From Pseudomonadota bacterium (GTDB lineage Bacteria; Pseudomonadota; Alphaproteobacteria; Rickettsiales; UBA1997), in the NCBI GenBank assembly GCA_018970485.1, contig JAGWWH010000001.1, forward strand, positions 79,951-143,950: a stretch of 64,000 bases of DNA, given 5' to 3'. Numbering within the stretch: position 1 is the first letter of the stretch; each line of letters begins with the position of its first letter. Both the position numbers and the translations under genes were made by a program. The notes beneath the pieces were generated by a model. It made no database searches. It worked only from the letters and a program-made list of their open reading frames with translations, and was not told where the DNA came from. This document shows, piece by piece, positions 15,701 through 54,000 of the stretch.

Positions 15701-15735
15701 GTCGATTCCTTAACGTTTAAGTAAGTTTGTAGAAA

Positions 15736-19479: not shown

Positions 19480-19482
19480 TCT

Positions 19483-20238: not shown

Positions 20239-20766
20239 CTAAAGTTTCTTAAAAGAGATTGTTAAAGTGCCGACGGTGAAGCCAAATTTTGTCATTTTTG
20301 AAACGTTAATCGCAGTTTTTTCGTCAACCAAATAAATCCAATCCACCAACTTGATGTCATATTTTTTGCCATCGACATCAATCTTTAAAACGTAATCCAT
20401 TTTGAAAGCATTGCCATATTGTTGACCCGTTGCGATTCCTACAGTGTCATGGGCTTTAGCAGTAAAATTGTTGTCATCAGAGAATTTAATTTCCCAAGTT
20501 CTTTGATCAGTTTTGCCGTCAGAAAAAGTAAAATTTTCTTTCAAAGTTCCTTCATTTCCTTGCCAAGTTCCTGTCATTTTTACAGTAAAACTTTTGATCA
20601 TTTTGCCGCTGCGATCTTGCAAAATTCCCTGCGCCTCAAGTGGTCCATTGAGGTAATTGCGGATATCCATTTTTGGTGAATTGTTGCTGTAGATTTTAGG
20701 ATTAATTGACGAGCAACCGAGTAAGAAGCCTAGAGACATAAGGATTGAGATTTTTTTAAGTTTCAT
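20239..20766 (-). CDS. DUF3833-like lipoprotein
   Basis: 175 aa. Lipobox LLGC after MKLKKISILMSLGF. Paralogous to 58876..59454. This family usually sits in this cluster type. Confidence 0.6.
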   Translation of the reverse strand: MKLKKISILMSLGFLLGCSSINPKIYSNNSPKMDIRNYLNGPLEAQGILQDRSGKMIKSFTVKMTGTWQGNEGTLKENFTFSDGKTDQRTWEIKFSDDNNFTAKAHDTVGIATGQQYGNAFKMDYVLKIDVDGKKYDIKLVDWIYLVDEKTAINVSKMTKFGFTVGTLTISFKKL

Positions 20767-22015: not shown

Positions 22016-22040
22016 CGGATTTTTTTGTTTTTGGCTATTT

Positions 22041-23648
22041 TTACCGACACAAATTCAAATCTTCGTCAATAAAATCAGCACCAACTCCTGAGCAGCCTAA
22101 GATTGAATGAAAGACATATTCGTGAGTGATTTTCTTGTGAGAGTTTTTGAGTAGATTCTTTAGTAAATCAGGATTTTCTTTTTTGTATTGGTCGGAATGC
22201 CAAACGAAAAGTGGCACTGAAATTTGTTCAAAAGGCTTATTATTTGCGCCATTGCCAATTCTACCTTCATCCTGCAGAGAAAATCCGTGATCTGGTGTAA
22301 AAAATACCACCGCATTTTCTCTGGAAAAAAGCTCAAGAATATCTTCCAAGACCTTGAAGCTGTAAACCACTGAGTTTTTGTAGGAATTGATCAATTCTTC
22401 TTTTGAGCAATCAGAAACACTTTTTGTAACCAAGCAACGTGGTGAGAATTTTGCATATTCTTCGGGGTAGCGCAGGTCGAGATTCCAATGGCTTCCGAGC
22501 AGATGGATCAAAATAAATTTGTCTTTCTTAGCTTCGGTTTCGTCGCCAATTGCCTTTTTGATGTAAGGAAGAAGGAACTCGTCGTAGCGATTACTTTTGC
22601 CTAAATCTGCGCTAATGAATTTTCCCTCGATGATTACGTCTGAAGATTTTGCCAAGAATGAGTAAGTTGAATCGAAGTATCCGTAGAGATTTTGATTGTC
22701 GATCCAGTAAGTGCCGAAGTTCAGTTTTTTAAACACATCAATCATGTTAACCGAATTTGGAAAATCTTCCCAATGGCTGTGTTTAACGTTTGTTAGTAGG
22801 CATGGAATCGACTTACGGGTTAAGGTGCCGCAAGAATAAACTTCATTAAAAAAGGTGATGTTTTTTTCTTCTTTTAATTTTGCTGGAAGCATCTCGTAGA
22901 AGTAGTCGTTACGAAGACTTTCACCAATTATGAATACTACGGTTCTAGGTTTTTTGTCGTTAGTGTAAGAGATTTTGTGACGACTGATTATTTCTGAACT
23001 TTGGCTTTTTCGTATTTTGATGTCGGAATCTTTTTTGATTTTAGCATATTTGAAGATGCTAGTAAATATGCTCACCGGAGGGTAGTTGTAGCGTATTTTT
23101 TTTACAGTGAATTCATCAAAAATTGCCACCAACAGAATCGTCAAAATCAGAATCGAGTGAAGAATTAAAAATGATTTTGAGTTGAAAGATCTTCTTCCGC
23201 TCCAAGTTAGTCGCGCCAAAAATCCAAAAATAATCGTTAGCCCTAAAGCCAAGACCGCTGTCTTGATACTTAAATATTCAAAAGTGAGGCCGCCGATATT
23301 TTCAAAGATATCGTTAACCACCCAAGCATCAATATTCTTACCTAAGAAAACAAAAAAATAGGTAACCAGTAACGATGCTAAAAATAGAATTGTCCAAATA
23401 ACCAATCCAAAGAGACCAAGCGAAAGTAAGCCAAAAGCGATAAAATATTGAACAATAAAAGCAGTTAAAACCTCGACAGCAATTTGAAATCCACCAAAAT
23501 TCTCATGAGCAGTAACAAAAGATCCTTGGTAAAACTTAACGGTAATTGGAGTAACAACAATCAAGGCCGCAAATATTGACAATAAAGCGATCAATAACCA
23601 CTGCGGATATTTTTTTAGTTTAATACTCATTAGTGCTTTTTTTTCCAA
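22041..23648 (-). CDS. phosphoethanolamine transferase (EptA/sulfatase family)
   Basis: 535 aa. N-terminal polytopic domain plus a C-terminal sulfatase-like domain with VVFIIGESLRNDYF, HLLGSHWNLDLRYP, TPDHGFSL. Confidence 0.8.
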   Translation of the reverse strand: MEKKALMSIKLKKYPQWLLIALLSIFAALIVVTPITVKFYQGSFVTAHENFGGFQIAVEVLTAFIVQYFIAFGLLSLGLFGLVIWTILFLASLLVTYFFVFLGKNIDAWVVNDIFENIGGLTFEYLSIKTAVLALGLTIIFGFLARLTWSGRRSFNSKSFLILHSILILTILLVAIFDEFTVKKIRYNYPPVSIFTSIFKYAKIKKDSDIKIRKSQSSEIISRHKISYTNDKKPRTVVFIIGESLRNDYFYEMLPAKLKEEKNITFFNEVYSCGTLTRKSIPCLLTNVKHSHWEDFPNSVNMIDVFKKLNFGTYWIDNQNLYGYFDSTYSFLAKSSDVIIEGKFISADLGKSNRYDEFLLPYIKKAIGDETEAKKDKFILIHLLGSHWNLDLRYPEEYAKFSPRCLVTKSVSDCSKEELINSYKNSVVYSFKVLEDILELFSRENAVVFFTPDHGFSLQDEGRIGNGANNKPFEQISVPLFVWHSDQYKKENPDLLKNLLKNSHKKITHEYVFHSILGCSGVGADFIDEDLNLCR

Positions 23649-30978: not shown

Positions 30979-31623
30979 ATGTTAAAAATTTCCCCTTCAA
31001 TTCTTTCCGCCGACTTTTCACGACTTGGCGAAGAAATAAAAAATATCGAAAAAGCCGGCGCAGACTACATCCACATTGATGTGATGGACGGAAGTTTTGT
31101 GCCGAATTTAACGATTGGCAATGAAGTGGTGAAGGCGATTAGGAAGGTTTCCAACCTGCCTTACGATGTGCATTTGATGATCAACAATCCCGACAATCAC
31201 ATTAAAAATTTTGCCGAAGCTGGTTCGGATATTATTACGATTCATGCCGAGGCCTCAATTCATCTCGATCGCAGCTTAGATCTAATCAAATCTTTCAACA
31301 AAAAAGCCGGTGTTTCTCTAGTTCCTTCAACTCACGAAGATGTTTTGGATTATGTTTTGGAGAAACTCGATTTGATTTTAGTGATGACTGTAAATCCGGG
31401 TTTTGGTGGGCAAAAGTTTTTGTCATCGCAGCTAAAGAAAATCGAAAATATCAGAAAAAAAATCGAAAAATCGGGCAGAAAAATTGAACTCGAAGTTGAT
31501 GGTGGCATCAACGAAGAAACCTCTAAAATGGTAGTCTCAGCTGGTGCAGATGTTTTGGTTTCTGGCTCCTACATCTTTGGTTCAAAAAATTACTCAGAAG
31601 CAATTTTAAAGCTGCGCTCTTAA
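30979..31623 (+). CDS. rpe: ribulose-phosphate 3-epimerase
   Basis: 214 aa. PSILSADF, HIDVMDGSFVPN, MTVNPGFGGQKF, VDGGIN. Confidence 0.93.
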   Translation: MLKISPSILSADFSRLGEEIKNIEKAGADYIHIDVMDGSFVPNLTIGNEVVKAIRKVSNLPYDVHLMINNPDNHIKNFAEAGSDIITIHAEASIHLDRSLDLIKSFNKKAGVSLVPSTHEDVLDYVLEKLDLILVMTVNPGFGGQKFLSSQLKKIENIRKKIEKSGRKIELEVDGGINEETSKMVVSAGADVLVSGSYIFGSKNYSEAILKLRS

Positions 31624-32945
31624 TGAAATATGTTGTCTACGGCCTTGGAATTTCAGGCCTCTCAGCTGCAAAATATTTGAAACAAGCTGGCAATGAAGTG
31701 ATTACAACTGACGATAGTCTAAATAATCCCGAGGCTTCGGCCAAGCCAGATCAAATTTCCTACGACTCCAAAACCATAATCAGTCTTTCTCCCGGAATTT
31801 TTCCTACGCATAAAATTTTTGATTTTGCTAAAAAATCTGGAGCAGAAATTGCTTGCGACATCGAAATTTTTTATCGCCTAAATCATCAAAATAACTTCAT
31901 CGCAATCACTGGAACGAACGGCAAATCAACTACAACCGCCCTCACCGGCTTTGTTTTTAAAGAGCTGAATATTTCTTCTGCGATTGGTGGAAATATCGGC
32001 ATTCCTTGCTTCGATTTACCGATGGATGATGAGATGACTTACATCTTCGAAACCTCTTCTTACCAACTCGATCTTCTCACCAAAACTCACTTCAAAATCG
32101 CCGCACTTTTAAATATTACGCCCGATCACCTCGATCACCATGGATCGATGGAAGCTTACATTGAGGCGAAGAAAAAAATCTTCCAAAACCAAACCGAACA
32201 AGACTTCGCTTTGATTGACGTCGACAATGAAAATTCACGAAAGGTTTTTGAAGAATTAAAAAATAACAAAAATTTCCGCGCTAAATTGATTCCGATCTCG
32301 ACGAGAAAAATTCAGGAAAATGGCGTTTCGTTAATTGCAGGAAAATTAGTTAATAAAATTGCCGGCGCTGATTCGCATCTCGAATTGAGCTCGGAATTTC
32401 TAAGCGGCCAGCACAATGATCAAAACATGGCTTTCGCCTTTGCGATTACTTACTGCTTTGGAATTTCTGATGAGAAAAAAATAATTTCTGCGATTCAAAA
32501 ATTTGAAGGCCTTCCACATCGCTGTAAAATTGTTGGACAAAAAGATGGAATAAAATTTGTTAATGACAGCAAAGCAACAAATGCAGAATCAACAGAGCCA
32601 GCGCTTAAGGCTTTTGAAAATATTTTTTGGATTCTTGGCGGCAGGCCAAAAGAAGGCGGAATTTCAATCCTTGCGCCCTATTTCAACAAAATTGCCAAAG
32701 CTTATTTGATCGGAGAAGCGACTGAAGAATTTGCGAAAATTTTGGAGGAAAATTCTGTAAATTTTGAAAAGTGTGGCGATCTGAAAAACGCCTTCAGAGC
32801 AGCTTATTTCGACGCAAAAAAATCTAGCCTAACAGAAAAAGTGCTCTTACTTTCGCCTGCCTGCGCATCGCTTGATCAATGGAAAAATTTTGAACAACGT
32901 GGCGATTATTTCTGCAAGCTAGTTGATGAATTTTGGAAATCCTGA
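31623..32945 (+). CDS. murD: UDP-N-acetylmuramoylalanine--D-glutamate ligase
   Basis: 440 aa. ITGTNGKSTT P-loop. Mur ligase central and C-terminal domains (NDSKATN, LSPACASLDQW). TAATG overlap with rpe. Confidence 0.92.
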   Translation: MKYVVYGLGISGLSAAKYLKQAGNEVITTDDSLNNPEASAKPDQISYDSKTIISLSPGIFPTHKIFDFAKKSGAEIACDIEIFYRLNHQNNFIAITGTNGKSTTTALTGFVFKELNISSAIGGNIGIPCFDLPMDDEMTYIFETSSYQLDLLTKTHFKIAALLNITPDHLDHHGSMEAYIEAKKKIFQNQTEQDFALIDVDNENSRKVFEELKNNKNFRAKLIPISTRKIQENGVSLIAGKLVNKIAGADSHLELSSEFLSGQHNDQNMAFAFAITYCFGISDEKKIISAIQKFEGLPHRCKIVGQKDGIKFVNDSKATNAESTEPALKAFENIFWILGGRPKEGGISILAPYFNKIAKAYLIGEATEEFAKILEENSVNFEKCGDLKNAFRAAYFDAKKSSLTEKVLLLSPACASLDQWKNFEQRGDYFCKLVDEFWKS

Positions 32946-35900
32946 AACAACAAAAATAACCGTAAAAAACTCAACCGCTTTCGTTGTCTTACTTTTGGTG
33001 TTTTTAGCGATTTTTTTTGCACCAAAAACTTCCTCCTCCCCTCCCAATCAAGACTGTAGTGCCGTTATTGGTACGCCTCAAGCTGGAGATAATTGTCTCT
33101 ATTTTTATCCTTTGCCTTTGTGCTCAGCTGTTCCTCGAGCTGGCTGGATTATTCCTTCGAGCTCCATTCTTGAAGCCACAACTAATCCAAATCACCGAGT
33201 TAACTGCGCCGATCTCGCTGATTTACCGCTTTGTAATCAGCTCGAGGATAACGGAGTAACCGCTTATCCACTAAAAAATTGCGTTAAAGAATGCTCTGAT
33301 ATTACAGGAAGTGGAAATCGCGGCATTGATTATGCCGTTCACAATCGTGATTGCATTAGATTTTGTGGAGATGTTGAGGAGGGAGTTACCACCTCAGGCG
33401 GCGATCAAAATTGCGTAGCGAAGAATTGTCATCAAATAGAATATAATGCTGGAAATCCTTCAGCCAGTATCGCTCCGAATCCAACAAATAATTGTAATCT
33501 TTTGCCATGCAATTTGTTGACTACGAACGAATTGAATGAAGCCAAGTTTACAAACGAGGCCACGATCAATTACGAGTATTGCAAAAACGAAAATAAATGC
33601 CTCGATTTCGCACAAACTCAATTGCCTTACCTAATCCCAAATAAGAGCTGCAAAATGCATAATTGCCGAGTCAGTTGCATAGATAATGCCACTGACGATG
33701 TGCAAAAAATTAAGGATAAGGGAGTTTCCTACACCAACGATTATCAGAACTACATCAACTCAAATTATCAGATTGGTACCGAGTCAGACACTTTGTGCCA
33801 AAGAACTTTTTGTCAGCCTGTGATTAAAAATCCTCTACACTGTTTTCCAGAAAATAACCCTGAAGCAACAATTCGTAACGAACAGTGTGATGATCCATCA
33901 ACCCCAGGCGGAATATGCAGTGGTGGATATTGCTACAAAACGATCGACTGCAATTCGGAAACAAATAACTCTCTTTGCCAATCTTCTAGCACAGCGACAG
34001 TCGGATCTACTGAAGATAGCTCGGTTAAATCTTGGTTTTATCGTCCAAAACCAATGGATAGCGCCACCAATGGATCTGGAGTTCCTCGCAATTTTGACGC
34101 CGACAGATTTTGCTACAGCAAAGATAACATGCTTGATAATAACTGGGGAGAAGATGCTTACATAACTACGATCTTCGGAAGAATTCCATTAGGCTATTGG
34201 CATCCATTTTGGGAAGATCCGAGATCGCCAGGAAAGTGTAGCGCTAACAATATCGGGGTTCGCGGAGTAGGACCTGAATATTTGTGCGGGATGAACCTCA
34301 ATATTTACAACAAACCCAATAGTTACGCTGGATATCACAGCGGCTATACCGAGACCACTTTCAACGACATAGGTGGAACAAGTATCGTTTCAGTTTGTTT
34401 GAGATTTGATGCTGGTGGCGCAATAGGAAGAAGCTGTGGCAAGAGAGAGTGCCAAGTTAGCTGCGCCTTTGGCGAGTGTAATCAGATTTGCGGTTCTGAT
34501 GAATGCGTTACTTTGGTTGTTAAAGAGGAAGATGCCGATGAATGCACCATGACCAACTCTCTCAGCGCAATGCCTGAGGGAGATTCGGTGGAGCTAGATG
34601 GAACAACTCGCGAATGCATGAAAACAATAGACGAAAAAATCAGAATAAGAGCTGTAAGATTCGATGATTACATCTGCACCTTTCTCGATATCAGAGGAAC
34701 ATTTGCGTATAGTCCGATCTATTTTGATGGATCGGAAAAAATCACTTTAGGCGGCGAAACTCCTGATACAGCGGACGATAAAACTTACTGCTTCTCTGGG
34801 ACTTACGACGAAAGCACCAGAAATTGCAATAACAGCAAAAACAGCAATGACGCAGTATCTTCCGATCAAAGATGGAGAGCCATAATGCAAATTCCTTACA
34901 TTCAAAATAATCAGCCAAGTGGCGAACCTAGGGGTTATTTGGATAAGAATGGCAGATTATTTCCTGAGCAAGGTTGTATCAAAATTGGTCATCGCATAAC
35001 GGTTCCACGCCTTTACAACCTTGCTAATATAGAAAATTCACCGCGGATATTTACGCCTCCTCTTTACATACTAAACGCCTCAACAAAAAGAGGTGGCGCC
35101 ATCTCTATTCCTTCGGGCTCACAAACATTTGGGGACACTGATTTTCACTACCCAGAAATAACAATAAATTTTGGTTCCAGCACGCAAAAGCTCAGCCTTG
35201 GTTTTGGAAAAACTGGTTACGAAGAAAGTTCTACTGATATCGATCCGCTTTCTAATGCAACTATTTCTACGGCTATCGATGGCGACATCACAGAATCTTT
35301 ATCTGCGGAAGTGATGGTGCGCAAAGAATTTGAAAACGCATCCAACCGCCCAACTTTTTGCCTTTATCAAAAAATCAAGGATGAGAATCAGACTTACTTA
35401 ACTCCGCAAAGAATTGGCTGCGTTTACAGAAAATATCCAGAAATAGACAATTCCAGAACAAGACTCTCTTCAGATAACTACTACAAACTCGTCCTTTCAT
35501 CAGATACAAATAACAGCTATTCGAGCTCAAAAATTGTTATTCGATATTTAAGCAGTTCGCTTGCTAATGCTAGCTGCGAATCAAACCCTTCTTCTTGTAG
35601 CACTCCCATAATTTTAGGAAATGACGATCCGTCTCTCGAAACTTGCGATCCACCAACTCAGCAAAGCAATTCAATCTCGGTCGAACAAAATAAAATATGC
35701 GTCAGGCGCGATGAGTGTAATAAGCTCAATAATGAGTGCATTCAAAATGAAATTAATCTCCACAACGCTAGAGCAACTAATCAATCAATAGACTCCCTTC
35801 TAACCATCCAGAATTATTGCAATAGAACCCTGCTTCCTATCTGTAACAATAAATTTGGCATTAACACTTCAAATCAGGCCACAGTCTACAATCCAAACCC

Positions 35901-38850
35901 ATCCGGAGCCACTGGTGATAATGATGCTTACGGATGGTTTAATGAACTTTGTATCACCCAAGGTTTTGAGCAGCAAAAAAAGCGAGTTGTGGCGAAGCTA
36001 ACCGATAATGGTGTTATGGGAAAATGCGTCATCGATGGAGTAACCGCTGCCGATTGTAGTGCTGGCGGTAAAAAGCCAGACTGCCCTTGTCTTGAATATG
36101 TAAACGGCACATCTCTTGCCGCAGATCAATACGATCGACTAGAAACAAGCCATGAAGCTGGTCTTTGCATCGACATACCTTTGCCGCAAGTTTGTCCGGC
36201 CATCAATCACAACCTGATACCAAATACTATTGAGGGTGATGAAAATTATATTTACAGCTCTCTACTTCAAGAACATTACGGCAACGATACTTCGCAATCT
36301 ACCAATGTGGTTCACATTTCTCATAGATATCGGACCGAAGGCTTATTAACTAATGATGGAGTGGTGATTCCAATCGCCGGACATGCCGAGTTTCCTCAAG
36401 CAATTTTCGGCTTTAACGATGTAACAGGAAGATGTGAGGGCTTCTGGGACGAAATTACAAATAGTGAAGGAGTTAAAGTTCCTCCAACAATGAGCTGCTT
36501 ATATTCTGCAGGATCGGCAATATGGGGAGAAGTGAGCAATCCTTGTGTTCGTTACTCTTGTCCTTTGGTTGATGCCTCACAAATTGACCCAAATGGATCT
36601 TATCCAAATGGTTACGGAGCTTCTGAAACTGGAGAAAATAAGGGCTCAAGCCACGGCTTTGCTAATTGGCCAGAAACTTCATTAACTAGCGATTTTGCCG
36701 TAGACTCTTCGGCGACAAGCTGCGTTACCGGATTCAAGAAAGCTAACTCAAGCATTATTATATCTAACTCCTCATCGCCAATATCCTCTAATCATAGCTG
36801 TGCGGGAGATTATGGAAATGCAAACCGAGCCGCTCTTTATTCCTGCATTAGTGGTTATAGCGGAGGCGCTTCACCAACCAGAAAATGTAATCAGACTGGA
36901 TCTTGGCAAACTCCAGAAAACTACTGCCAAAGAATTTCTTGTCCGGCAATCAACCCACCAACGCCTTCTGGATCTGACGATACTGCAAGTTGGGAACTTT
37001 GGAGCAATTCCGGTGGCGCCACCTTCCCTTCCGTTAATGCAGCTCGCAGCGAAACTTTGGTCGATGGATCAATAGTTAAATTATCCGCCACTTCAACTGG
37101 CACCTGTAATAATGATTTAGGATTTTTTCAAATTTCCGGTGGACCAGCGCCAACAAGAGTTTGTGATTATTTAGGAAACTGGAGTGCGGTAGAAAATCCT
37201 TGTATAACAAAATGTAACGCAATTTCTACTTCGACATTAGCCTCCAGCGAAGGCAACGGTCATGCTTATTGGTATGAAGCCATAAACATTCCCGTTCCTG
37301 GAGAATTACTAAGTACATCAAATGGCTGTTCTTCTCCATCAAATCCGCCAAATCCGCAATTCACCGATAACGGAGTATGCAAGACTAACGCTTTTAATGG
37401 CTGCGTTGATGGCTATTTTACATATCCTTATCCACCACTTCGTAACGCTTACGGAACAGCCTACACGCTTGGAAATTGTAAAACAGAAACTTGTCCAGCC
37501 GGAACAATTCCTAAGGACGTAAATAATGACACTAGAGCTGTCGGCAATCCCGAGCGTTATTGCAAATCAATTAACGTAGTTAGTAGTGCAAGCAGCGAAG
37601 TAAATGTTTGGACTTCAACCTCATCAAGCTGCGTAAATAGCTGTCCTGGATATGATGTTGATCCTAGAATCAATGTCGGAAAAACGGAGCACCCAGCCAG
37701 TAATAATGCAGATGGAAGTTTTAATGGAACACTAACAATCAATTGGCCAACTACAGCTTTCGGTCAAACTGCTTACATTAATTCGCCTAGTGATATTAAT
37801 ACCCATAACGGTTCTCACTATTATTATGGTAGAACCAACGGCTATTATTCTTTGTCGAGATATTGCAATCCAAATACTCATAAGTGGGAAAATCCTACTC
37901 CTTACTGCGCTACGAATAATGGACAAATCAAGGTTGGCCCATCAAATATTGCCGATGCTTTAGCAACCTACAATTCCCCAACTCCGCGCGTTGCCGTTGG
38001 ATCAACAACTGGAACGGGAACTTGTTTGTCAGGATCTTATTCTGATGCAAATGGAAGCATATCGGCCTCTGCCGCAACATGTTCTTACAAAGATGCCAAT
38101 GCCAATAACAGAATTGACGAAACTTATTTCGATACCGGTAGCGTAAAAAAATGTAATCCGATGTGCAGAAGTAGAAGCGGCGATAACTACGGAAATGGAT
38201 CAACTGACGCTACAAGTGGGGTTAATTACAAATATTACGTAGCCAACAGTCGGTTAAATCTTAACTGTAGAGACGGTTATGGTAGCACCATAATTTCTGG
38301 ATCATCGGTTAATAACTCTTACAATAGCTGTAATAGAAGCAATTACGGCGCAACAAGCGACCGTAGCCCTAATCAACCTTACACATTATGCACGCTAAAT
38401 AGCGATGGAAGCGCTTCATGGAGTACAATTTTAAATGATTGCAGCCTATGTAGAAGCTGTAGTAGAGCTACTTCCAGCATAATACCAAACAATAATAGTG
38501 TTGGTAATGGAGATAGCGCCCCTTCACAAAGCAAAGTATTCTCTGGTGAAAAAATCGTTCATTTTTATAGCAGCGGCCAGGAAAACTGTGGTAGCAACGA
38601 TGATGCAAGAGACATAACCGACTTCATAACAAACAAGTGCTCGACTAGTAGTTGGTTCAGCCTTTCTCATGGTCAATGCGTTAGAATGGGCTTTACTAGA
38701 GGCCAATCTTGTCGCAATAGCGCTGGTCAAACTCGCCACACTGACACCAATGCTTATTTTGATTTAGTTTGTTCGGACGGGGTATATGTGCCAGATACAA
38801 ATGCCAGCGCCTGCAGCGGAGCAACCAATAATATTTGTGAACGACGATAA
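32923..38850 (+). CDS. giant (1975 aa) cysteine-rich, N-terminally anchored surface/secreted protein of unknown function with Sushi/CCP-like modules
   Basis: Uninterrupted 5.9-kb ORF. One hydrophobic segment, AFVVLLLVFLAIFFA, near the N-terminus. Cys/Asn/Ser/Thr/Gly-rich throughout. No catalytic motif and no beta-barrel-like C-terminus recognised. Confidence 0.8.
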   Translation: MMNFGNPETTKITVKNSTAFVVLLLVFLAIFFAPKTSSSPPNQDCSAVIGTPQAGDNCLYFYPLPLCSAVPRAGWIIPSSSILEATTNPNHRVNCADLADLPLCNQLEDNGVTAYPLKNCVKECSDITGSGNRGIDYAVHNRDCIRFCGDVEEGVTTSGGDQNCVAKNCHQIEYNAGNPSASIAPNPTNNCNLLPCNLLTTNELNEAKFTNEATINYEYCKNENKCLDFAQTQLPYLIPNKSCKMHNCRVSCIDNATDDVQKIKDKGVSYTNDYQNYINSNYQIGTESDTLCQRTFCQPVIKNPLHCFPENNPEATIRNEQCDDPSTPGGICSGGYCYKTIDCNSETNNSLCQSSSTATVGSTEDSSVKSWFYRPKPMDSATNGSGVPRNFDADRFCYSKDNMLDNNWGEDAYITTIFGRIPLGYWHPFWEDPRSPGKCSANNIGVRGVGPEYLCGMNLNIYNKPNSYAGYHSGYTETTFNDIGGTSIVSVCLRFDAGGAIGRSCGKRECQVSCAFGECNQICGSDECVTLVVKEEDADECTMTNSLSAMPEGDSVELDGTTRECMKTIDEKIRIRAVRFDDYICTFLDIRGTFAYSPIYFDGSEKITLGGETPDTADDKTYCFSGTYDESTRNCNNSKNSNDAVSSDQRWRAIMQIPYIQNNQPSGEPRGYLDKNGRLFPEQGCIKIGHRITVPRLYNLANIENSPRIFTPPLYILNASTKRGGAISIPSGSQTFGDTDFHYPEITINFGSSTQKLSLGFGKTGYEESSTDIDPLSNATISTAIDGDITESLSAEVMVRKEFENASNRPTFCLYQKIKDENQTYLTPQRIGCVYRKYPEIDNSRTRLSSDNYYKLVLSSDTNNSYSSSKIVIRYLSSSLANASCESNPSSCSTPIILGNDDPSLETCDPPTQQSNSISVEQNKICVRRDECNKLNNECIQNEINLHNARATNQSIDSLLTIQNYCNRTLLPICNNKFGINTSNQATVYNPNPSGATGDNDAYGWFNELCITQGFEQQKKRVVAKLTDNGVMGKCVIDGVTAADCSAGGKKPDCPCLEYVNGTSLAADQYDRLETSHEAGLCIDIPLPQVCPAINHNLIPNTIEGDENYIYSSLLQEHYGNDTSQSTNVVHISHRYRTEGLLTNDGVVIPIAGHAEFPQAIFGFNDVTGRCEGFWDEITNSEGVKVPPTMSCLYSAGSAIWGEVSNPCVRYSCPLVDASQIDPNGSYPNGYGASETGENKGSSHGFANWPETSLTSDFAVDSSATSCVTGFKKANSSIIISNSSSPISSNHSCAGDYGNANRAALYSCISGYSGGASPTRKCNQTGSWQTPENYCQRISCPAINPPTPSGSDDTASWELWSNSGGATFPSVNAARSETLVDGSIVKLSATSTGTCNNDLGFFQISGGPAPTRVCDYLGNWSAVENPCITKCNAISTSTLASSEGNGHAYWYEAINIPVPGELLSTSNGCSSPSNPPNPQFTDNGVCKTNAFNGCVDGYFTYPYPPLRNAYGTAYTLGNCKTETCPAGTIPKDVNNDTRAVGNPERYCKSINVVSSASSEVNVWTSTSSSCVNSCPGYDVDPRINVGKTEHPASNNADGSFNGTLTINWPTTAFGQTAYINSPSDINTHNGSHYYYGRTNGYYSLSRYCNPNTHKWENPTPYCATNNGQIKVGPSNIADALATYNSPTPRVAVGSTTGTGTCLSGSYSDANGSISASAATCSYKDANANNRIDETYFDTGSVKKCNPMCRSRSGDNYGNGSTDATSGVNYKYYVANSRLNLNCRDGYGSTIISGSSVNNSYNSCNRSNYGATSDRSPNQPYTLCTLNSDGSASWSTILNDCSLCRSCSRATSSIIPNNNSVGNGDSAPSQSKVFSGEKIVHFYSSGQENCGSNDDARDITDFITNKCSTSSWFSLSHGQCVRMGFTRGQSCRNSAGQTRHTDTNAYFDLVCSDGVYVPDTNASACSGATNNICERR

Positions 38851-38865
38851 TTTAATTTTTGAAAT

Positions 38866-39339
38866 ATGATCCCAATCTCAATAATAATGGGCAGTAAATC
38901 AGACTTTGCGACAATGCAAAATGCCTGTGCAATTCTCGATGAGTTTAAAATTTCCTACGAAACAAAAATTGTCTCTGCTCATCGCACCCCAAAGCGTTTA
39001 TATGAATTTTGTGAATCGGCAAAAGAACGAGGCGTAAAAGTAATTATTGCTGGCGCTGGCGGCGCGGCTCATCTTCCAGGAATGACTGCATCAATGACTG
39101 ATCTTCCTGTTCTTGGCGTTCCCGTTGAAAGTCGTGCGCTTAAAGGTCTAGATTCGCTTCTTTCAATCGCCCAAATGCCAGCAGGAATTCCGGTTGGATG
39201 TCTAGCGATTGGCGAAGCTGGAGCCAAAAACGCGGCACTTTTAGCAATCGCGATTCTAGCTTTGTCTGATGAAAAACTGGCAAAAAAATTAAGAAAGTTT
39301 CGCGAAGATCAAACCAAGTCAGTCGCGATTAAACCTTAA
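38866..39339 (+). CDS. purE: N5-carboxyaminoimidazole ribonucleotide mutase
   Basis: 157 aa. [24 protein letters not shown] signatures. Confidence 0.9.
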
Positions 39340-39539
39340 ATTTGCCTTTAAGATTTCCAGCTCTACAAAGCCGCGCCCTTCACTTAATTTTCGACTAAAT
39401 CCAATGCTTAAATCATTCGAATTACGCCAATTTCTTTTTGGATTTGTTTCGGTTCCAACATTAGGCCTGATTGGCACTAAACCACCATCATTCAAACCAA
39501 ACTCAAACAGATCCTTCCCTAAAAAATTTACAAACAACA

Positions 39540-39908
39540 ATGAAAGACCAAGAACATCATCACACTCGCCAAGAAAACTCTCCTAGAGAATACTCATCTG
39601 ATCGCCCTCGCCAAACTCGTCCAGACTCACGCAACTCATTTAAACCAAGAAAAAATTCATCAAAATTAATTGGGCAAATTTTTGGCTTAATCTACAATCT
39701 AGTTCTGCTTTATCTCGTTTATGACTTAGCAAAATCAGGTTCAGAAAAATTGGCATTAGGAATCTTTGCCATAAATGCAGCATTCATCTTCTTTGTTGCA
39801 GTCTCCGTTAAAAAATCTTTTAAACACAAACCTCACAACAGTTCTTACAGAGATGGGGGAAATAGATCTTCTCGCCCTTCTCGCTCTTCACAATCATCTG
39901 CTCGTTAA
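39540..39908 (+). CDS. small membrane protein with Ser/Arg-rich basic tails (hypothetical)
   Basis: MKDQEHHHTRQENSPREYSSDRPRQTRPDSRNSF... Two hydrophobic helices (IGQIFGLIYNLVLLYLVY, LALGIFAINAAFIFFVAV). C-terminal NRSSRPSRSSQSSAR. The track ORF starts earlier (39471) and the start is uncertain. Confidence 0.35.
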   Translation: MKDQEHHHTRQENSPREYSSDRPRQTRPDSRNSFKPRKNSSKLIGQIFGLIYNLVLLYLVYDLAKSGSEKLALGIFAINAAFIFFVAVSVKKSFKHKPHNSSYRDGGNRSSRPSRSSQSSAR

Positions 39909-42902: not shown

Positions 42903-44771
42903 CTAGCTCAGCAGATTCTTCAGAACTTCAATCGCTTGCGCAATTCCCTCTTTATTCGCGCCACCGCCCATCGCTAAATCTTTTTTTCCGCCGCCGCCTT
43001 TTCCACCGACCGCTTCAACAACGGGCGCGATTAATTTTGCCGCATCAAATTGCAGATTAGCGCTTACAGCCACGGAGACCGCAACCTTCCCATCCTTAAA
43101 TCCAAAAAGTGCAAAAACACAAGAATCTTGGAATTCTTTTTTTGACTTAACGTCGCTCAAAATTTCGCGTACATCTTTCGCTTCTGCATTTTCAAAAAGA
43201 TGAGAAACCAAAGTTACGTCACCGATTTTTTCAGCTTTCAGATTGTCCAAATTGGCGAGAAGAGCTTGTTTTTTCAGACGCTCGATTTCCTTGTCTTTTT
43301 TCTTCAAAATTTCTTCGAGGATTTTTGCATCACCTTCGTCAGCGTGTGAATTATCTGGCTTTGCGCCACCTAAATCAAAAATTTCCTGATTCTTTTTGTT
43401 AATTTTTTCGTAGAGTTCAGAAATAAAATTCTGCGATTTTTCGGCTTGTTGGGCTAAATATTTTTTTACTTCATCACCACTTCTAGCCTCGATTCTTCTA
43501 ATCCCAGAGGCCACAGACTTTTCAGAAATAATTTTAAAAACTTCAATTTCTGAAGTGTTTTTCACGTGAGTTCCGCCGCATAATTCAACCGAAGATCCCA
43601 TTTTTACGACACGAACTTCTGCATCATATTTCTCACCAAACAAGGCTTCTGCTCCACTGTCGCGAGCTGCTTCTAGAGCCATTAAATTGGTATTTACTTC
43701 CGACTTATTTGCGATCCAACCATTCACCAATTCTTCAACTTTTTTGATTTCTTCCGCCGTCATTTGGCGATTAAAATTGAAGTCAAAAGTGAAATATTCG
43801 GCATCAACATTTGAGCCTTTTTGCGAGATCGAATTACCTAAAACTTCTTTCAAAGCCTTGTGCATCAAATGTGTCGCCGAGTGATTCGCTGCGCGGGCTG
43901 CACGAGTTGTTTGATTTACTTCAGCAGTAACCTCATCACCAACTTTTAGATCAATTTTCTGCTTGGCAAAAAAGTGAACAAATAAATTTCCGGCGAATTT
44001 TTTGGTCTCGAAAATTTCTACTCCAGCAATTTTTCCATCATCACCTTTTTGACCGCCGGAAGTAGCGTAGAATGGGGTTTTATCGAGAATTATCGCATCG
44101 TCTAAAATCGCCAAAACTGTCGCTTTTGCGCTCAAGTTTTCGTAACCCAAAAATTTTGTTTCACCGTATTTTTCTTTGAGATCAAAAAAGATTTTTTCCT
44201 CTTTTTCTTCGCCTGAACCAACCCAATTTTTTCTTGCGCGTTCACGCTGCAATTCCATCTCGCGATTGAATTCTTCGACATCAACTTCGAGATTTTTTTC
44301 CTTCAAAATATCTTGCGTGAGATCAAGCGGGAAGCCGTAAGTATCGTAGAGTTTGAAGGCAGTAGCTCCGGAGAATTTCGGCGTCACCCTGAGCTTGTCG
44401 AAGGGTGATTTTTCTTGCCCAGAATCATGCTTCGACAAGCTCGGCATGACTTTGATTTCCTCTTCCAAAATTTTTAAACCCTTCTCCAAAGTTTCGCGGA
44501 ATTTCTCTTCTTCGTTTTTTAGTGTTTCGACGATCGTATCACGAGCCCGCCCCAGCTCTGGATAGGCAACACCCATTTCGTTAATTAGCGCTTCAACAAG
44601 TTTGTACATCGAAACTTCTTTCGCGCCGAGTTTGTGCAATTGGCGCATGGCACGACGCATGATACGACGCAGAACATAACCACGTCCTTCGTTGCTTGGC
44701 ATCACACCGTCGGCGATTAAAAAAGATGAAGAACGTAGATGATCAGCGATGATTTTGAATTCTGCTTTCAT
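42903..44771 (-). CDS. alaS: alanine--tRNA ligase fragment lacking the N-terminal class II catalytic core (tRNA-recognition, editing and C-Ala domains present)
   Basis: 622 aa. It begins at MKAEFKIIADHLRSSSFLIADGVMPSNEGRGYVLRRIMRRA, which aligns to about residue 260-300 of full-length AlaRS. Editing motifs HSATHLMH and CGGTHV and the C-terminal GGKGGGGKKDLAMGGG are intact. The in-frame upstream sequence is repeat/RNase J 3' sequence, not AlaRS. Confidence 0.85.
   Translation of the reverse strand: MKAEFKIIADHLRSSSFLIADGVMPSNEGRGYVLRRIMRRAMRQLHKLGAKEVSMYKLVEALINEMGVAYPELGRARDTIVETLKNEEEKFRETLEKGLKILEEEIKVMPSLSKHDSGQEKSPFDKLRVTPKFSGATAFKLYDTYGFPLDLTQDILKEKNLEVDVEEFNREMELQRERARKNWVGSGEEKEEKIFFDLKEKYGETKFLGYENLSAKATVLAILDDAIILDKTPFYATSGGQKGDDGKIAGVEIFETKKFAGNLFVHFFAKQKIDLKVGDEVTAEVNQTTRAARAANHSATHLMHKALKEVLGNSISQKGSNVDAEYFTFDFNFNRQMTAEEIKKVEELVNGWIANKSEVNTNLMALEAARDSGAEALFGEKYDAEVRVVKMGSSVELCGGTHVKNTSEIEVFKIISEKSVASGIRRIEARSGDEVKKYLAQQAEKSQNFISELYEKINKKNQEIFDLGGAKPDNSHADEGDAKILEEILKKKDKEIERLKKQALLANLDNLKAEKIGDVTLVSHLFENAEAKDVREILSDVKSKKEFQDSCVFALFGFKDGKVAVSVAVSANLQFDAAKLIAPVVEAVGGKGGGGKKDLAMGGGANKEGIAQAIEVLKNLLS
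44383..44450. repeat. palindromic element family A, inserted in frame in alaS
   Basis: gtcaccctgagcttgtcgaagggtgatttttcttgcccagaatcatgcttcgacaagctcggcatgac. Encodes [23 protein letters not shown] between conserved LEEE and TAFKLYDTYGFP. Confidence 0.9.
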
Positions 44772-44839: not shown

Positions 44840-46582
44840 TTAATTTATTAGGTGAATTGCGATCTCTAGTGCTGGCCTTTTGCCCATCAAATCTTCAAGA
44901 ATTTTCAATAATCTTGAGCGCAATGCTTTTTCAATTTCGGAGAAAATTTTTGCCTCTTGAAGTTTTTTATTTTTCTTCTTTTTCAAAAAGCGAAGTCCGA
45001 AGCCGTCATGTAAATCAAGCTCTTTGGCTCTTTGTTTTAGGAAAAATGCGATTTCTTTTTTGATGATTTCTTCGGCATCTCTGTCTGATCTAAAATCGTA
45101 AGAACCAACCGCTGTTAAGTTAATTTTCGACATTGGAACCAATGAGCCATTCACTGCGAATGAGATCATTACTATTCCCGCCATTTGCAGTTTCTTGCGT
45201 TCACGAATCACTTCGCCTTTTAGATCAAGCAATTGCTTGCCGTCGACGCCGAAATAACCAACTTTTACCGAACCAACTGCAACTGAGTTTGAAGGATTTT
45301 CTCCGTCAATTTTTACCGCTAGACCATTTTCAATTTGAATAACGCGCCCTACTCCCGCTTCATCTGCAAGCTCGCAGTGAGATTTAGTGTGAAGGAATTC
45401 TCCGTGAACGGGAATGGCAATTTTTGGTCTTGCCAGTGCGTACATTTCGCGCAACTCATCTTGCGAAGGATGCCCTGAAACGTGGACGAAATGATCTTTT
45501 TCAGTCATTACGTCGATTTGTTTTTTGGCGAGTTCGGCAAAAAGTTCGAAGATTTTTTTCTCGTTTCCGGGAATAATTTTTGAAGAAAAAATCATCAAAT
45601 CACCGCGTGCAAAATGAATGCTTGGGTGAAGATTAGTCGCGATTTTGCGTGTTGCGGCTCTAGGCTCGCCTTGGCATCCAGTGGCGATTACGAGAATTTC
45701 TTTTTTGTCGTAAAACTTCATTTCGCGATCGGAAATAAACTCAAAATCTTCGGTAAAAAATCCGCTTTTTTTACCAACTTCGTGAAGACGGTGCAGAGAA
45801 AATCCTGCAAGTACAACCTTGCGACCCACGTCACGAGCGATGCGAGCGATGGTGTGAATACGAGCAATGTTTGACGCAAAAGTTGTAACGCCAACCAATC
45901 CACTTCTTCCCGCAATTAAACTTTTTAGTGAATCGTAAAGTTCGCCTTCAGAACGGGAATGGCCGGGAGATAGCGAGTTTGTTGAGTCGCAGATCATCGC
46001 GGTAATTTCGCCAGCATCGCCTAAAGCACGAATTTTTTCTTTTTCAGAAACTTCGCCAACTACTGGATTTGGATCGAATTTCCAATCTCCCGTGTGCAAA
46101 ACATTGCCTTTGTGAGTGCGGATCATCAGCGCTTTCATCTCAGGAACTGAATGAGTTAGGCCGATAAAATCGATTTTAAACGGATGAAGATCAAGTTGCT
46201 TTGAGCCATCAATGATGCGGATTGGCACAACTTTATCGAGTTTGTATTCATCCAGCTTTGTGCGTAAAAAATGTGCGCCAAAATTTGTTGCGTAAACTGG
46301 CACGCGTAATTCTTCCCACAAATATTGAACCGCGCCCATGTGGTCTTCGTGGATGTGGGTTAATACGATTCCAAGAAGGTTGTGACGATGTTGTTTAATG
46401 AAGGAAATATCGGCAGTCATCATGTCGACACCAGGAATGTCGTAGGCGAAGCCAACGCCGCAATCGACCATTAACCACTTACCATCGAGATGGTAAAGAT
46501 TGAGATTCATCCCAATTTCATTAGCGCCGCCAAGGGGAAGAAAGAGAAGGTCGGAGTGATGTTTTTTTAGATTAAGTTCCAT
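44840..46582 (-). CDS. rnj: ribonuclease J (metallo-beta-lactamase/beta-CASP)
   Basis: 580 aa. THIHEDHMG (HxHxDH). beta-CASP segments HTGDWKFD and VSGHPSQDEL. Confidence 0.9.
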   Translation of the reverse strand: MELNLKKHHSDLLFLPLGGANEIGMNLNLYHLDGKWLMVDCGVGFAYDIPGVDMMTADISFIKQHRHNLLGIVLTHIHEDHMGAVQYLWEELRVPVYATNFGAHFLRTKLDEYKLDKVVPIRIIDGSKQLDLHPFKIDFIGLTHSVPEMKALMIRTHKGNVLHTGDWKFDPNPVVGEVSEKEKIRALGDAGEITAMICDSTNSLSPGHSRSEGELYDSLKSLIAGRSGLVGVTTFASNIARIHTIARIARDVGRKVVLAGFSLHRLHEVGKKSGFFTEDFEFISDREMKFYDKKEILVIATGCQGEPRAATRKIATNLHPSIHFARGDLMIFSSKIIPGNEKKIFELFAELAKKQIDVMTEKDHFVHVSGHPSQDELREMYALARPKIAIPVHGEFLHTKSHCELADEAGVGRVIQIENGLAVKIDGENPSNSVAVGSVKVGYFGVDGKQLLDLKGEVIRERKKLQMAGIVMISFAVNGSLVPMSKINLTAVGSYDFRSDRDAEEIIKKEIAFFLKQRAKELDLHDGFGLRFLKKKKNKKLQEAKIFSEIEKALRSRLLKILEDLMGKRPALEIAIHLIN

Positions 46583-50901: not shown

Positions 50902-50989
50902 GCCTGCGTGATGGAATGGTAGACATAACGGACTTAAAATCCGTGGAGCTTTATCGCTCTTGCCGGTTCAAGTCCGGCCGCAGGTACCA
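50902..50989 (+). tRNA. tRNA-Leu (anticodon UAA), class II with long variable arm, CCA encoded
   Basis: Folded by hand. Acceptor GCCTGCG/CGCAGGT (G1-U72 wobble). 3-bp D stem ATG/CAT. Anticodon stem ACGGA/TCCGT with loop CTTAAAA. 17-nt variable arm. T arm GCCGG-TTCAAGT-CCGGC. Discriminator A plus CCA. Confidence 0.9.
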
Positions 50990-51014: not shown

Positions 51015-54000
51015 ATGAGTTTTACCAAAAAAATAGCACAGTTTTTAGCGCTGATTTTTTTGGCCTTACCACTTTTTTCCTGCAAGGAAGGTTGTGTTGC
51101 CGCTGATGAATTTGACTCCCAGTCAATAACAATCGAATCACTCCCTGATCAAATATACGGAAGTTACGATCCGATTAATGGCGGCCAAAGAGTCGATTGG
51201 AAAAATACTGAATTAAGAGTTAACGGCTTGCCTTTATTGATGCAGATCTCGGGATCATGGTCTTCTTTGCAGGGTGGCAGCAGTGGAAGTCAGGGTATCC
51301 TCGATAGACTACCTCGCTGCAACATATGTACAAAAAGAGATCCGGCGGATAATTGCATATGCCGCTGGGATCAAGAACCAGAGCCAGAACTCGCTCCCTC
51401 CGGAAATCCTTACACCTTGGATGCTGATGGAAACACCCTCAACTGCGCCAGTAATGCAGATCACCAAGATGACGCGCTGAGATGCACTTGCACAAAACAA
51501 CATGGGAAGGCGACTGATTATGGCTTGTATCACTTTCCGCGAGACCTTCTCAATAAAGACGAAACGGTCAAACTTCCGGATCAACAAAATAACTGTAAAT
51601 ACGATCGAGGTTTAGGCGCCTACATGTCTTTGTGGGGATCTAATGGCGTTACAACTCCTTTAAGAGCTTATCACTTATATTCGGAAGAGTCGGTTTGTAA
51701 CATCACGCTTAACTCCGATGGAGAGTGTATTGATTCGCAGGGCAGAGACAGAACTCGCTGGATCTTCCGCAGCGCCAACAGACTTCCTTTCATGAAGGAT
51801 GATAATAGCGGAAATACAGACATTGATTTAAACACCGTAGATGACGTTTATCACTCAGCCAATGAGCAGCTTAAAACGATCATGTATGACCAATATTATC
51901 GCGATAATTACGGTAGCTACAATGTGCAGATTTTTGGTGGAGTAGGCAAATCTAAGTTTTCCGGCATTCTGGAAAGTTTGGTGGGTTTGGTTGAAGACTC
52001 TATTCTTGGTAAAGTTGGTGATGATGGCAAAAGAGAGGGCGGAATTTTACGCTCGATGTATCAATCAATCGTTACCGATTCTGGCTTCGCACAAATATTA
52101 CAAATCTCTCTCGCTTTATACATCGCGATCTTTGGTGCTGCCCATATTTGGGGATTGGCCGAAATGAATAAAAAAGAAATCTTTGGTCGGGTGATAAAGA
52201 TTGGTCTGATCATGCTTTTTGTTAGCCCCACAAGTTGGGAATTTTACAACACTTTTATCGTCGGATTCTTCAAAGATGGCTTAGATTACCTAGTTGGAAT
52301 ATTCATGACTTTAACCGACTCAAACATCGAGCAGACCTCGATGATTAAGGTCTCTCAAATGGATCGAGTCACCGATAGCAGCAGTGCCACGCGTTTTGCT
52401 TACGTAGATCTCATCATTCGCAATCTAATGTCGGAAGCGGTTTCGAAGAAAATAATATCCCTCTTCTTTACCAACTTCTTTGGCTGGTTCTACATCATCG
52501 CCATCTACCTACTCATATTTTTCTTCATCAGCGTAATGCTCTACGTAGCACTGATCTACGTTGTTAACTACCTGATGAAGATTGTTTTTGTGATGTCGAT
52601 TGGGCCAATATTTATAATTTTTTCTCTCTTCAAAAAAACATCGGGATATTTCCGTAATTGGCTCAGTTACATCGCCGCGAGATCTTTTGAGATGCTGGTG
52701 CTTTTCATCGTGCTTTATTTATTCGTGACGATCATCGACAAAAACTTTAACGAAATGTTGCTCTACAATGCCTGCGCTGAACCTTGGGGATTGGGGCCTT
52801 TGAAGATGATGGTTTTGAAATCTGATGTTGATCGCGGCCTCGCTCAATGGCTTCTTTATTTTGTCACAATATTCGGGCTTATTTTTATCATGCTGCAAGT
52901 GATAGAGCAGGTTCCGCGCCTTTCTGGCTCACTCTTCACCATTAATATTGGCGATGAAAAAGCTGACGGTGGTTACGGTTATGGTGGTGCTGATTTCTAT
53001 ACTGATAATAAGGGATATGCCTCAAAAAGTATTGCCGGCTCGATTGCTGCAGACTTTAAGCCAGTTCAAGATTTTGCCTTAGCGACTTCGACATCTTTGT
53101 TTGGACGCGTCGGAAGTGGTGTATTCTACGGCGGACTAAGAGCAATAAATGCTTTAGGAGACATCACTGGATTCAACTCTGTTTACAAATCGACGACATA
53201 TCGAGGCGGAATTGCTGGTAACTTTATGGACGACAAATTCAAAGCCGCATTGGAAAAAAATTCTGGTAATGAAGATGGGGCAAGAGACGCCTTCAATTCT
53301 GAGATGAGAGATTTGTTAAAAACAGATCCATTAAAAATGGCTGCTGTCGGCATCAATGAAAGATCAATCTCCGAATTCTTGGATGAAAAACTAATCAGAG
53401 ATCCTCTAAGAAATTTCCTGAAAGAAGAGACAAAAAGAATGAAAAAAATGCCCGCCGACCAAATTCCAATTGGTGAGGCCGATGTCTCTGATTACTTAAA
53501 GCGTAAAGCTGATGAATGGACTAAAAAGAACTTATCCCAATCATCTGCAAAAAGAGCTTCCGAAATCATGAGAGAGAAAGGCATAAGAGAGCTCATGAGA
53601 AATCAAGGAACTCTAAATGCCAAAGAAGCCAAAGAAGCCTTTGCGGGCAATAAAGCTTTGGAAGACAAATTCCGAGCCGATCTCGCCAACCGTCAATTCG
53701 CAGAAAAACAAAAAGGGGATAATGCTTGGAAGAATCCGGTCTCCGTAGGTCTAAAAAGATTGCTTAAAAACGCTTACCGCAGATCGGTTGGAGACCCATT
53801 CCACAATCCTGGAATGGTCTTAAAATCTTTTGAAAAAGGACGTCTGGACTCTGATACAGGAAATCTTGGCGCGATGCGTTCTTATTTGAGAGAATCTGGT
53901 GCTCCAATCGATACAACGGGAATGAATGCAAGCTCAAGAAGAGCGGCCGAAAGACAAAATGAAAGAAATCAATTTTTCAAAGATCAGCTGCGTAAATCAG

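Follow-up and report, generated by a model that had tools for sequence, protein, structure and literature searches.

An array of divergent Sushi/HRM-type modules in a giant protein family of uncultured Rickettsiales

Results

The giant protein and its modules

The window analysed here is a 64,000-nucleotide stretch of contig JAGWWH010000001.1 (assembly GCA_018970485.1) from a bacterium of the order Rickettsiales, and our subject is a giant open reading frame (ORF) in it, at 32923-38850 on the forward strand. It encodes 1,974 amino acids (aa) from an ATG at 32926 (32926-38850), or 1,975 aa from a TTG at 32923, and belongs to a family that is conserved over its full length. A reading of the letters alone, hereafter the sequence-only reading, had singled out 36430-37215, which is exactly codons 1170-1431 of this ORF, as a run of eukaryote-like Sushi or complement control protein (CCP) modules. 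The Cys-rich segments that it quoted fall in this single ORF, and all four strings are found in the translation: CEGFWDEIT...CVRYSCP at aa 1171-1214, ALYSCISGY...CQRISCP at aa 1304-1341, CPAINPP...CITKC at aa 1340-1431 and what had been called a later trace, YYSLSRYCNPNTHKWENPTPYC, at aa 1641-1662. The protein contains 100 Cys (5.1%) and 20 Trp. A hydrophobic helix near the N-terminus (about aa 17-33, 32971-33021, forward strand as for all parts of the protein given below; residues 16-30 of the AlphaFold2 model, whose residue 1 is aa 2 of the protein) was read by inspection and is predicted on that basis to be a Sec signal or signal anchor, and no lipobox was found when the N-terminus was inspected. 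Behind it lies an N-terminal orphan region (aa 44-1085, 33052-36177). Scanned at full length, the protein has no NCBIfam match, and Pfam gives a sub-threshold HRM match only and no Sushi.

From aa 1086 onward, which is the C-terminal 45% of the protein, there is an array of at least six modules of the Sushi/CCP-HRM-EphCRD superfamily (A to E and G), with F doubtful. Modules A (36193-36546; C1091, C1171, C1192, W1201, C1208), B (36559-36927; C1213, C1267, C1322, W1328, C1335), C (36940-37203; C1340, C1395, C1414, W1420, C1427) and D (37213-37632; C1431, C1494, C1547, W1563, C1570) have exactly four of these Cys each, 98-100% conserved among the 100 full-length homologues over which all Cys and Trp conservation was counted, and in all four modules the Cys/Trp framework is invariant. 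Module E (37642-37908; C1574, C1648, W1655, C1662), in which the later trace lies, has three conserved Cys only, while module G (38164-38460; C1748, C1782, C1823, W1833, C1840/1846) has four to six, with lower conservation. Segment F, between them (aa 1663-1747, 37909-38163), keeps C1701, C1720 and C1744 conserved and is uncertain in its assignment to the module type, and the variable, Cys-containing C-terminal tail (segment H, aa 1847-1975, 38461-38847) is not recognisably Sushi-like. The Trp between the third and fourth Cys (C3 and C4) is 90-100% conserved in modules A to E (W1201, W1328, W1420, W1563, W1655) and 85% conserved in G (W1833).

The sequence-only reading had likened the way in which the modules are strung together to tandem CCP repeats, and this part of it held: neighbouring modules from A to D are joined via linkers of three or four residues between C4 of one and C1 of the next. 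Against 2000 composition-preserving shuffles of the giant protein, the linker pattern C-x(3,4)-C-P occurs 4 times where 0.59 are expected (P=0.0015), the pattern C-x(3,6)-[GSTHAN]-x-W-x(4,10)-C 4 times against 0.54 (P=0.008) and the composite C2..C3..W..C4 twice against 0.04 (P=0.001), and since these motifs are several-fold commoner than in the shuffles we take the observation to be real. Two details of that reading have to be corrected. It had put the modules at about 60-90 aa, and we measure C1-C4 spans of 118 (A), 123 (B), 88 (C) and 140 aa (D), in place of the roughly 60 all-beta residues of a CCP; the greater length is due to helix-containing inserts, for each module carries 25-80 aa, partly helical, between C1 and C2, with about 80 aa separating the two in module A. 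The Cys of YSCISGY, C1308, gives module B its most canonical look and underlies the Pfam Sushi match, but just 2% of homologues have it together with its partner C1293; at C2 the Cys that module B conserves is C1267, in the motif SCVTGF. Extra Cys pairs specific to subclades are thus found both in module B (C1293/C1308, in the subclade of the window) and in module D (C1469/1486 and C1519/1524).

Pfam scans, profile searches and profile-profile comparison

The Sushi signal of the giant protein appeared upon Pfam scanning of tiles rather than of the full length. When aa 1296-1335, within module B, were scanned as a fragment, Sushi (PF00084) matched at 21.9 bits (E=2.4e-4; cut-off 20.7) over model positions 17-56 only, and fragments of the window protein scored 21.9, 21.8 and 20.6 bits against that cut-off, all with partial coverage of the model. 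A tile of aa 1606-1660 matched HRM at E=0.0023; module E itself reaches 18.7 bits, below the HRM cut-off of 26.2, and has three conserved Cys where HRM has six. A local hmmsearch gives 23.3 bits over aa 1389-1427 of module C, whose consensus weakly matches Ephrin_CRD. Among homologues, segments corresponding to aa 1086-1432 match Ephrin_CRD in 19 of 44 cases (best 2.1e-8), Sushi in 7 of 44 (best 8.1e-6) and HRM in one of 44, and segments corresponding to aa 1428-1975 match Sushi in 4, HRM in 3 and Ephrin_CRD in 2 of 31, the Sushi matches in both sets being counted at E<0.01. The family consensus of module E scores 28.1 bits with HRM, above the gathering score of 26.2, and that of module G 25.4 bits with Sushi (E=1.9e-5), above 20.7; the consensus sequences of modules A, B, D, F and H have no Pfam match. 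Compared with PDB sequences, the family profiles of aa 1086-1432 and of the full length gave no meaningful match.

A profile of the 39-sequence module alignment, searched against 1.84 billion representative proteins, returned 246 matches at E<=1e-3, of which the 102 at E<=1e-30 are the giant family itself. About 35 further proteins match in 7-31 separate stretches, mainly around profile positions 190-245 (the second half of module B), and such multi-repeat proteins are retrieved at E-values from 1e-13 to 1e-64. All ten of the repeat proteins that were scanned with Pfam proved to be HRM/Sushi/Ephrin_CRD arrays; for instance, P0199 (E=2.9e-24 with the family profile) carries 11 Pfam Sushi repeats (E=1e-104), and P0211 (E=7e-19) carries 13 that span the full model (E=9e-145).

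For profile-profile comparison with hhalign we used two targets, a profile of 99 repeats from protist-type arrays and one of the 24 canonical Sushi repeats of P0199 and P0211. Probabilities against the protist-type repeats were 95.3% for module A, 96.8% for B, 97.1% for C, 87.8% for D, 66% for E, 30% for F, 95.2% for G and 0.3% for tail H, and against canonical Sushi they were 88.1% for B, 88.8% for E, 90.0% for G, 27% for C, 2.4% for D and 0.3% for A. Six N-terminal segments of the family, comparable to the modules in length and Cys content, served as controls and gave 0.1-0.7%, so that Cys-richness alone is not the source of the Sushi signal.

Predicted structures

The AlphaFold2 model of aa 1086-1432, which comprises the three modules A to C and was built from the 39-sequence alignment, has a mean predicted local distance difference test score (pLDDT) of 94.5 and a predicted TM-score (pTM) of 0.85, the latter suggesting that the three modelled modules pack rigidly; secondary-structure assignment with DSSP places short helices within their inserts. 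In a Foldseek comparison with the PDB, ranks 1 to 37 are taken exclusively by CCP- or Eph-CRD-containing proteins, among them CD46 (best E=3.4e-4), beta2-glycoprotein I, CD55, Crry, CR1, C1s, MASP-2, PAPP-A, EphA2, EphA4 and EphB2, and the lower ranks hold unrelated propellers at probability <=0.04. The EphA2 CRD (chain 8trs_D) matches with probability 1.00 and a root-mean-square deviation of 3.0 Å over 92 columns, at 23% identity. The predicted fold of the modelled modules is thus similar to that of solved CCP modules, in a comparison of the kind that the sequence-only reading had proposed.

Its Sushi assignment accordingly stands at the level of the superfamily, where fold, hhalign, the library search and the framework of four Cys and a Trp agree, and falls for the canonical 60-aa CCP, for which the Pfam score is marginal: a fragment passes the PF00084 cut-off and the full-length protein has no match. 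The modules are atypical, and in sequence comparisons HRM, Eph-CRD and protist repeats resemble them more than CCPs of the complement type do. They are an insert-bearing form of a known domain type within a previously undescribed giant protein family.

The N-terminal region is strongly conserved as well: it has many invariant motifs, and of the 58 Cys that precede aa 1086, 52 reach a conservation of 90% or more. Its AlphaFold2 model (aa 2-1090; pLDDT 80.5) is mostly beta, with a helical hairpin at about aa 933-977 (model residues 932-976). The region has no relative in Pfam (scanned as tiles), NCBIfam or PDB sequences, and Foldseek finds no assignable fold for the model in the PDB (best E=9e-3, probability 0.08). 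These roughly 1,050 aa are thus a fairly confidently modelled stretch without known fold relatives.

Family, gene neighbourhood and lineage

The protein search returned 124 clusters of 1,800-2,100 aa with 30-68% identity over the full length, all annotated as 'hypothetical', the few named ones coming from metagenome-assembled genomes (MAGs) labelled 'Rickettsiales bacterium'; identity within the giant family reaches down to about 27-30%. Larger relatives of 3,200-4,800 aa (P0176-P0239; L060, L061), two of which are 'Rickettsiales bacterium' hypotheticals at NCBI, match modules A and B of the profile. A genome scan with exact peptide patterns located 56 giant-gene loci in species-representative genomes, all of them MAGs, from lakes, an aquifer and the sea.

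In the window, the giant gene lies between murD (31623-32945, forward strand), whose 3' end its ATG overlaps by 20 nt (32926-32945), and purE (AIR carboxylase; 38866-39339, forward strand), and overlaps with murD similar to the window's are implied in related loci. The order mlaD-DUF2155-rpe-murD-giant-purE is kept in most loci, with murD adjacent to the giant gene in 46 and purE in 44, and the murD-purE slot is preserved in about 45 species-level genomes; a 3,704-aa orthologue sits in the same slot. The gene is universally single-copy, and its GC content (0.42) and GC at third codon positions (GC3; 0.35) are the same as those of its neighbours. Given this native composition and the conserved synteny, the giant gene belongs to the core gene set and has long been inherited vertically rather than carried on an island, and on the same grounds recent horizontal transfer is rejected. 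At the level of individual loci, the murD-giant junction and the downstream purE recur across L001-L043 and L060, and in L051 and L056 murD directly adjoins purE and the giant gene follows purE, a local rearrangement.

Three of the loci (L002, L028 and L049) belong to RIFCSPLOWO2_01_FULL_40_26, UBA2645 and C-132, the founding MAGs of Candidatus Gamibacteraceae (bioRxiv 10.1101/2021.08.31.458344). This family, known from MAGs only, is sister to the ectosymbiont Candidatus Deianiraea vastatrix and is without an ATP/ADP translocase, and a ciliate and Hydra have yielded 16S sequences related to it (PMC9352585). The published analysis screened 'eukaryotic-like' domains in the form of Ank, LRR, TPR and pentapeptide repeats only (PMC9352585). 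In the searched library, the literature on bacterial Sushi domains, on Sushi in Rickettsiales and on Gamibacteraceae gave no description of the giant protein, and one review names Sushi solely among the animal-like adhesion domains of apicomplexans. That the bacterium is a member of Rickettsiales is supported by the three Gamibacteraceae MAGs in the family and by a TrbL/VirB6 gene elsewhere in the window.

Relatives outside the family

The contig context was examined for five out-of-family matches. The contigs of P0195 and P0186 carry fragments of Mito_carr, Hus1, Ribosomal_L14e and Tim17 and are eukaryotic; those of P0151 and P0224 are gene-sparse, with P0151 beside a kinase ORF, and are probably eukaryotic; and all four proteins are HRM/Sushi-like repeat proteins. 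The fifth, P0211, is probably bacterial, because its contig has 72% GC and its N-terminus is lipoprotein-like. The label 'eukaryote-like' is therefore borne out by two clear and two probable cases. Among bacteria, Sushi arrays are not unique to this lineage, for P0211 has 13 canonical repeats. In a BLASTP alignment of the window segment with P0151 several modules align at about 25-29% identity, and the two have in common the signature G-T-C-x-x-G-[YF]-x-G-x-P-[TS]-R-x-C-x-x-x-G-x-W-x(5-7)-C-x(3-4)-C-P.

Two metagenomic loci are of interest in their own right. L058 (5115-9779), on a clearly eukaryotic contig, and L063 (5126-12128), on a probably eukaryotic one, have long arrays of HRM/Sushi-like repeats of about 50-55 aa with protein-kinase ORFs behind them. 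These arrays suggest a receptor-kinase ectodomain of a type so far uncharacterised in protists, and outside the family nothing is more closely related to the bacterial modules.

Discussion

The modules of the giant protein can be set beside several known systems. With Sushi/CCP arrays (PF00084), such as those of CD55, CD46, CR1 and beta2-glycoprotein I, they have in common the four-Cys framework, the invariant Trp between C3 and C4, the C-x-x-G-[FY] motif at C2, C4-C1 linkers of 3-4 residues, the tandem arrangement and a beta-sandwich among the top fold matches. They differ in their length of 88-140 rather than about 60 aa, in the partly helical C1-C2 inserts, in the marginal Pfam score and in being fused to an orphan region of about 1,050 aa in a bacterial protein; whereas a complement regulator is built essentially of CCPs throughout, more than half of the giant protein is this non-CCP region. 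HRM (PF02793, the ectodomain of class-B G-protein-coupled receptors) and the N-terminal part of the Eph-receptor CRD (PF25599) are Sushi-like folds, too. They account for the best Pfam E-values among homologues (2.1e-8 for Ephrin_CRD) and for the fold match to the EphA2 CRD 8trs_D, but the giant protein has no receptor architecture and no EGF or seven-transmembrane partner, and its module E has three Cys and not the six of HRM.

The metagenomic arrays of about 50-55-aa HRM/Sushi-like repeats (P0151, P0186, P0195, P0189) are linked to the giant protein by the common signature and by hhalign probabilities of 95-97% for modules A, B, C and G; some such arrays carry kinase domains or adjoin kinase ORFs, and two lie on clearly eukaryotic contigs. 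These eukaryotic repeats are compact, without inserts and iterated 10-30 times, whereas the modules of the bacterial protein number six or seven and are enlarged, individually distinct and conserved in position. P0211 resembles this protein as an exported and probably bacterial one, judged by its lipoprotein-like N-terminus, of 13 Sushi-type repeats, from which the window modules differ in being far more divergent and in belonging to a different, Rickettsiales-restricted family. Because the superfamily is mostly eukaryotic and the bacterial modules were found only in Rickettsiales-labelled MAGs, an ancient capture of the module type from a eukaryote is plausible; and because the nearest relatives outside the family include protist repeat proteins with kinase neighbours, any eukaryotic transfer would be ancient. 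Of the earlier proposal of acquisition from a eukaryote, a recent event is rejected on the native GC and GC3 and on synteny across about 45 genomes, and an ancient one survives as plausible.

On balance we favour, with some confidence, the view that the giant protein is a lineage-specific exported protein of aquatic uncultured Rickettsiales, in which the Sushi-type array is an envelope or surface binding spacer that goes back to an ancient eukaryotic capture. Its roughly 100 Cys would form disulfides outside the cytoplasm, by oxidative folding. By analogy with Sushi arrays elsewhere, the module array could form a stiff, disulfide-stapled spacer and at the same time a binding surface for proteins or glycans. 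Its place of action would be the envelope or surface of the bacterium, where it would most likely contact a eukaryotic (protist) partner, and the module type would have entered the lineage through the ancient capture and then have been duplicated and diverged there. Contact with a eukaryotic partner appears to us somewhat more likely than a purely structural role in the periplasm or envelope.

Several observations weigh against this account. The Foldseek E-values are modest (best 3.4e-4) and the query-normalised TM-scores low (<=0.27), the latter because a rigid three-module model is compared as a whole. Transfer from eukaryote to bacterium, and its direction, are read from distribution, and with P0211 a probably bacterial canonical array exists. 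No Deianiraea-named locus came up in the genome scan, which, given its exact peptide patterns, is weak evidence of absence. No autotransporter barrel, signal of a type I secretion system or other recognised outer-membrane route is found in the giant protein, which may therefore stay in the periplasm. Finally, strong conservation of the N-terminal region and of modules A-C, in a gene that is universally single-copy, is more what one would expect of a housekeeping component of the envelope than of an adhesin that evolves fast in contact with a host.

The last two points lead directly to a different explanation, a serious rival though in our view the less likely one, namely that of a structural protein of the periplasm or envelope without a host-contact role: tethered to the inner membrane, held by about 50 predicted disulfides, serving as a rigid scaffold or spacer and co-expressed with murD. 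The cysteine-rich envelope proteins of Chlamydia offer a comparison for such a role. The Sec-type N-terminus together with the lack of a recognised export module for the outer membrane fits it, as do the near-invariant Cys of a highly conserved single-copy gene, the rigid packing that a pTM of 0.85 suggests for the three-module model, and an ATG that overlaps the murD stop by 20 nt, with adjacency in 46 loci. The local order rpe-murD-giant-purE is functionally mixed, though, so that adjacency to murD may merely reflect genome compaction; moreover, Sushi/HRM modules elsewhere are extracellular binding modules, and no known envelope scaffold resembles the protein.

That the modules mimic the complement regulators or selectins of animals, as the sequence-only reading suggested, would imply recent acquisition from an animal host and binding of the C3b/C4b type. 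We regard this as very improbable: although CD46, CD55, CR1 and Crry are among the top Foldseek matches and the C4-x3/4-C1-P linkers are present, nothing else in the data points to it. The HRM, Ephrin_CRD and protist-repeat signals exceed that of Pfam Sushi, the modules measure 88-140 aa with inserts, the family is old (about 27-30% identity at its limits), syntenic and compositionally native, and the related genomes are all MAGs of aquatic origin (lakes, an aquifer, the sea), for whose clade the only published hints at hosts are the 16S sequences that a ciliate and Hydra yielded (PMC9352585). Least credible of all is a chance spacing of Cys and Trp in a Cys-rich protein unrelated to Sushi. 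The absence of Pfam Sushi from the full-length protein, the failure of the family profiles to match any PDB sequence and a single window Sushi match that is at threshold and uses a non-conserved Cys would all suit it, but N-terminal Cys-rich controls stay below 1% in hhalign where modules reach 88-97%, the 37 best fold matches are exclusively CCP/Eph-CRD proteins, and a search of 1.84 billion proteins with the family profile brings up canonical Sushi arrays. The control segments, the fold matches and the library search together refute a chance Cys/Trp pattern.

Returning to an exported protein with a captured array, its wider implications can be stated at different levels of confidence. The family extends the Sushi/HRM superfamily by a bacterial branch that is well supported and deeply divergent. 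As a conserved, syntenic, exported protein of 2-5 kaa, half of it built from a mostly eukaryotic extracellular module, the giant gene is a candidate for the envelope or host-contact biology of Gamibacteraceae, and it would be a convenient marker gene. A bolder idea, which we think unlikely, is that an ancestor of the aquatic clade took up a protist Sushi/HRM repeat, duplicated and enlarged it and fused it to a previously unseen Cys-rich fold of about 1,050 aa, which gave rise to a lineage-defining giant surface organelle protein that docks on a eukaryotic host. If this were true, the docking protein would amount to a means of host attachment in environmental Rickettsiales that has so far gone unrecognised and that differs from Sca autotransporters, FhaB/FhaC and effectors of the type IV secretion system (T4SS).

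Other genes in the window

Further along the window, a 1,308-aa ORF (51015-54941, forward strand) has a core with multiple transmembrane segments that matches TrbL/VirB6 (PF04610, E=1.2e-20, aa 367-581), a lipoprotein-like N-terminus ('LPLFSC') and a long charged C-terminal extension, and it stands alone beside a tRNA-Leu gene (50902-50989). Enlarged VirB6 proteins are characteristic of the rvh T4SS of Rickettsiales, and we take this ORF to resemble the enlarged rvhB6 proteins of that system. A 145-aa ORF (39471-39908, forward strand), whose N-terminus is of low complexity and rich in His, Arg and Ser and which has two hydrophobic helices, shows no family match, and a homologue with 74% identity occupies the same position in L007.

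On the reverse strand, 14198-23648 holds a run of envelope and lipid genes that includes a PF00144 serine beta-lactamase-family gene, cyclopropane-fatty-acid synthase (CMAS), an amine-oxidase-type flavoprotein, an MFS_2 transporter and an EptA-like phosphoethanolamine transferase. The alaS ORF (42903-44771, reverse strand) has only 622 aa, and since its Pfam tRNA-synt_2c match starts at position 270 of the model, it lacks the catalytic N-terminal part; the gene could be split, truncated or mis-assembled. Directly upstream of this ORF lies RNase J (44840-46582).

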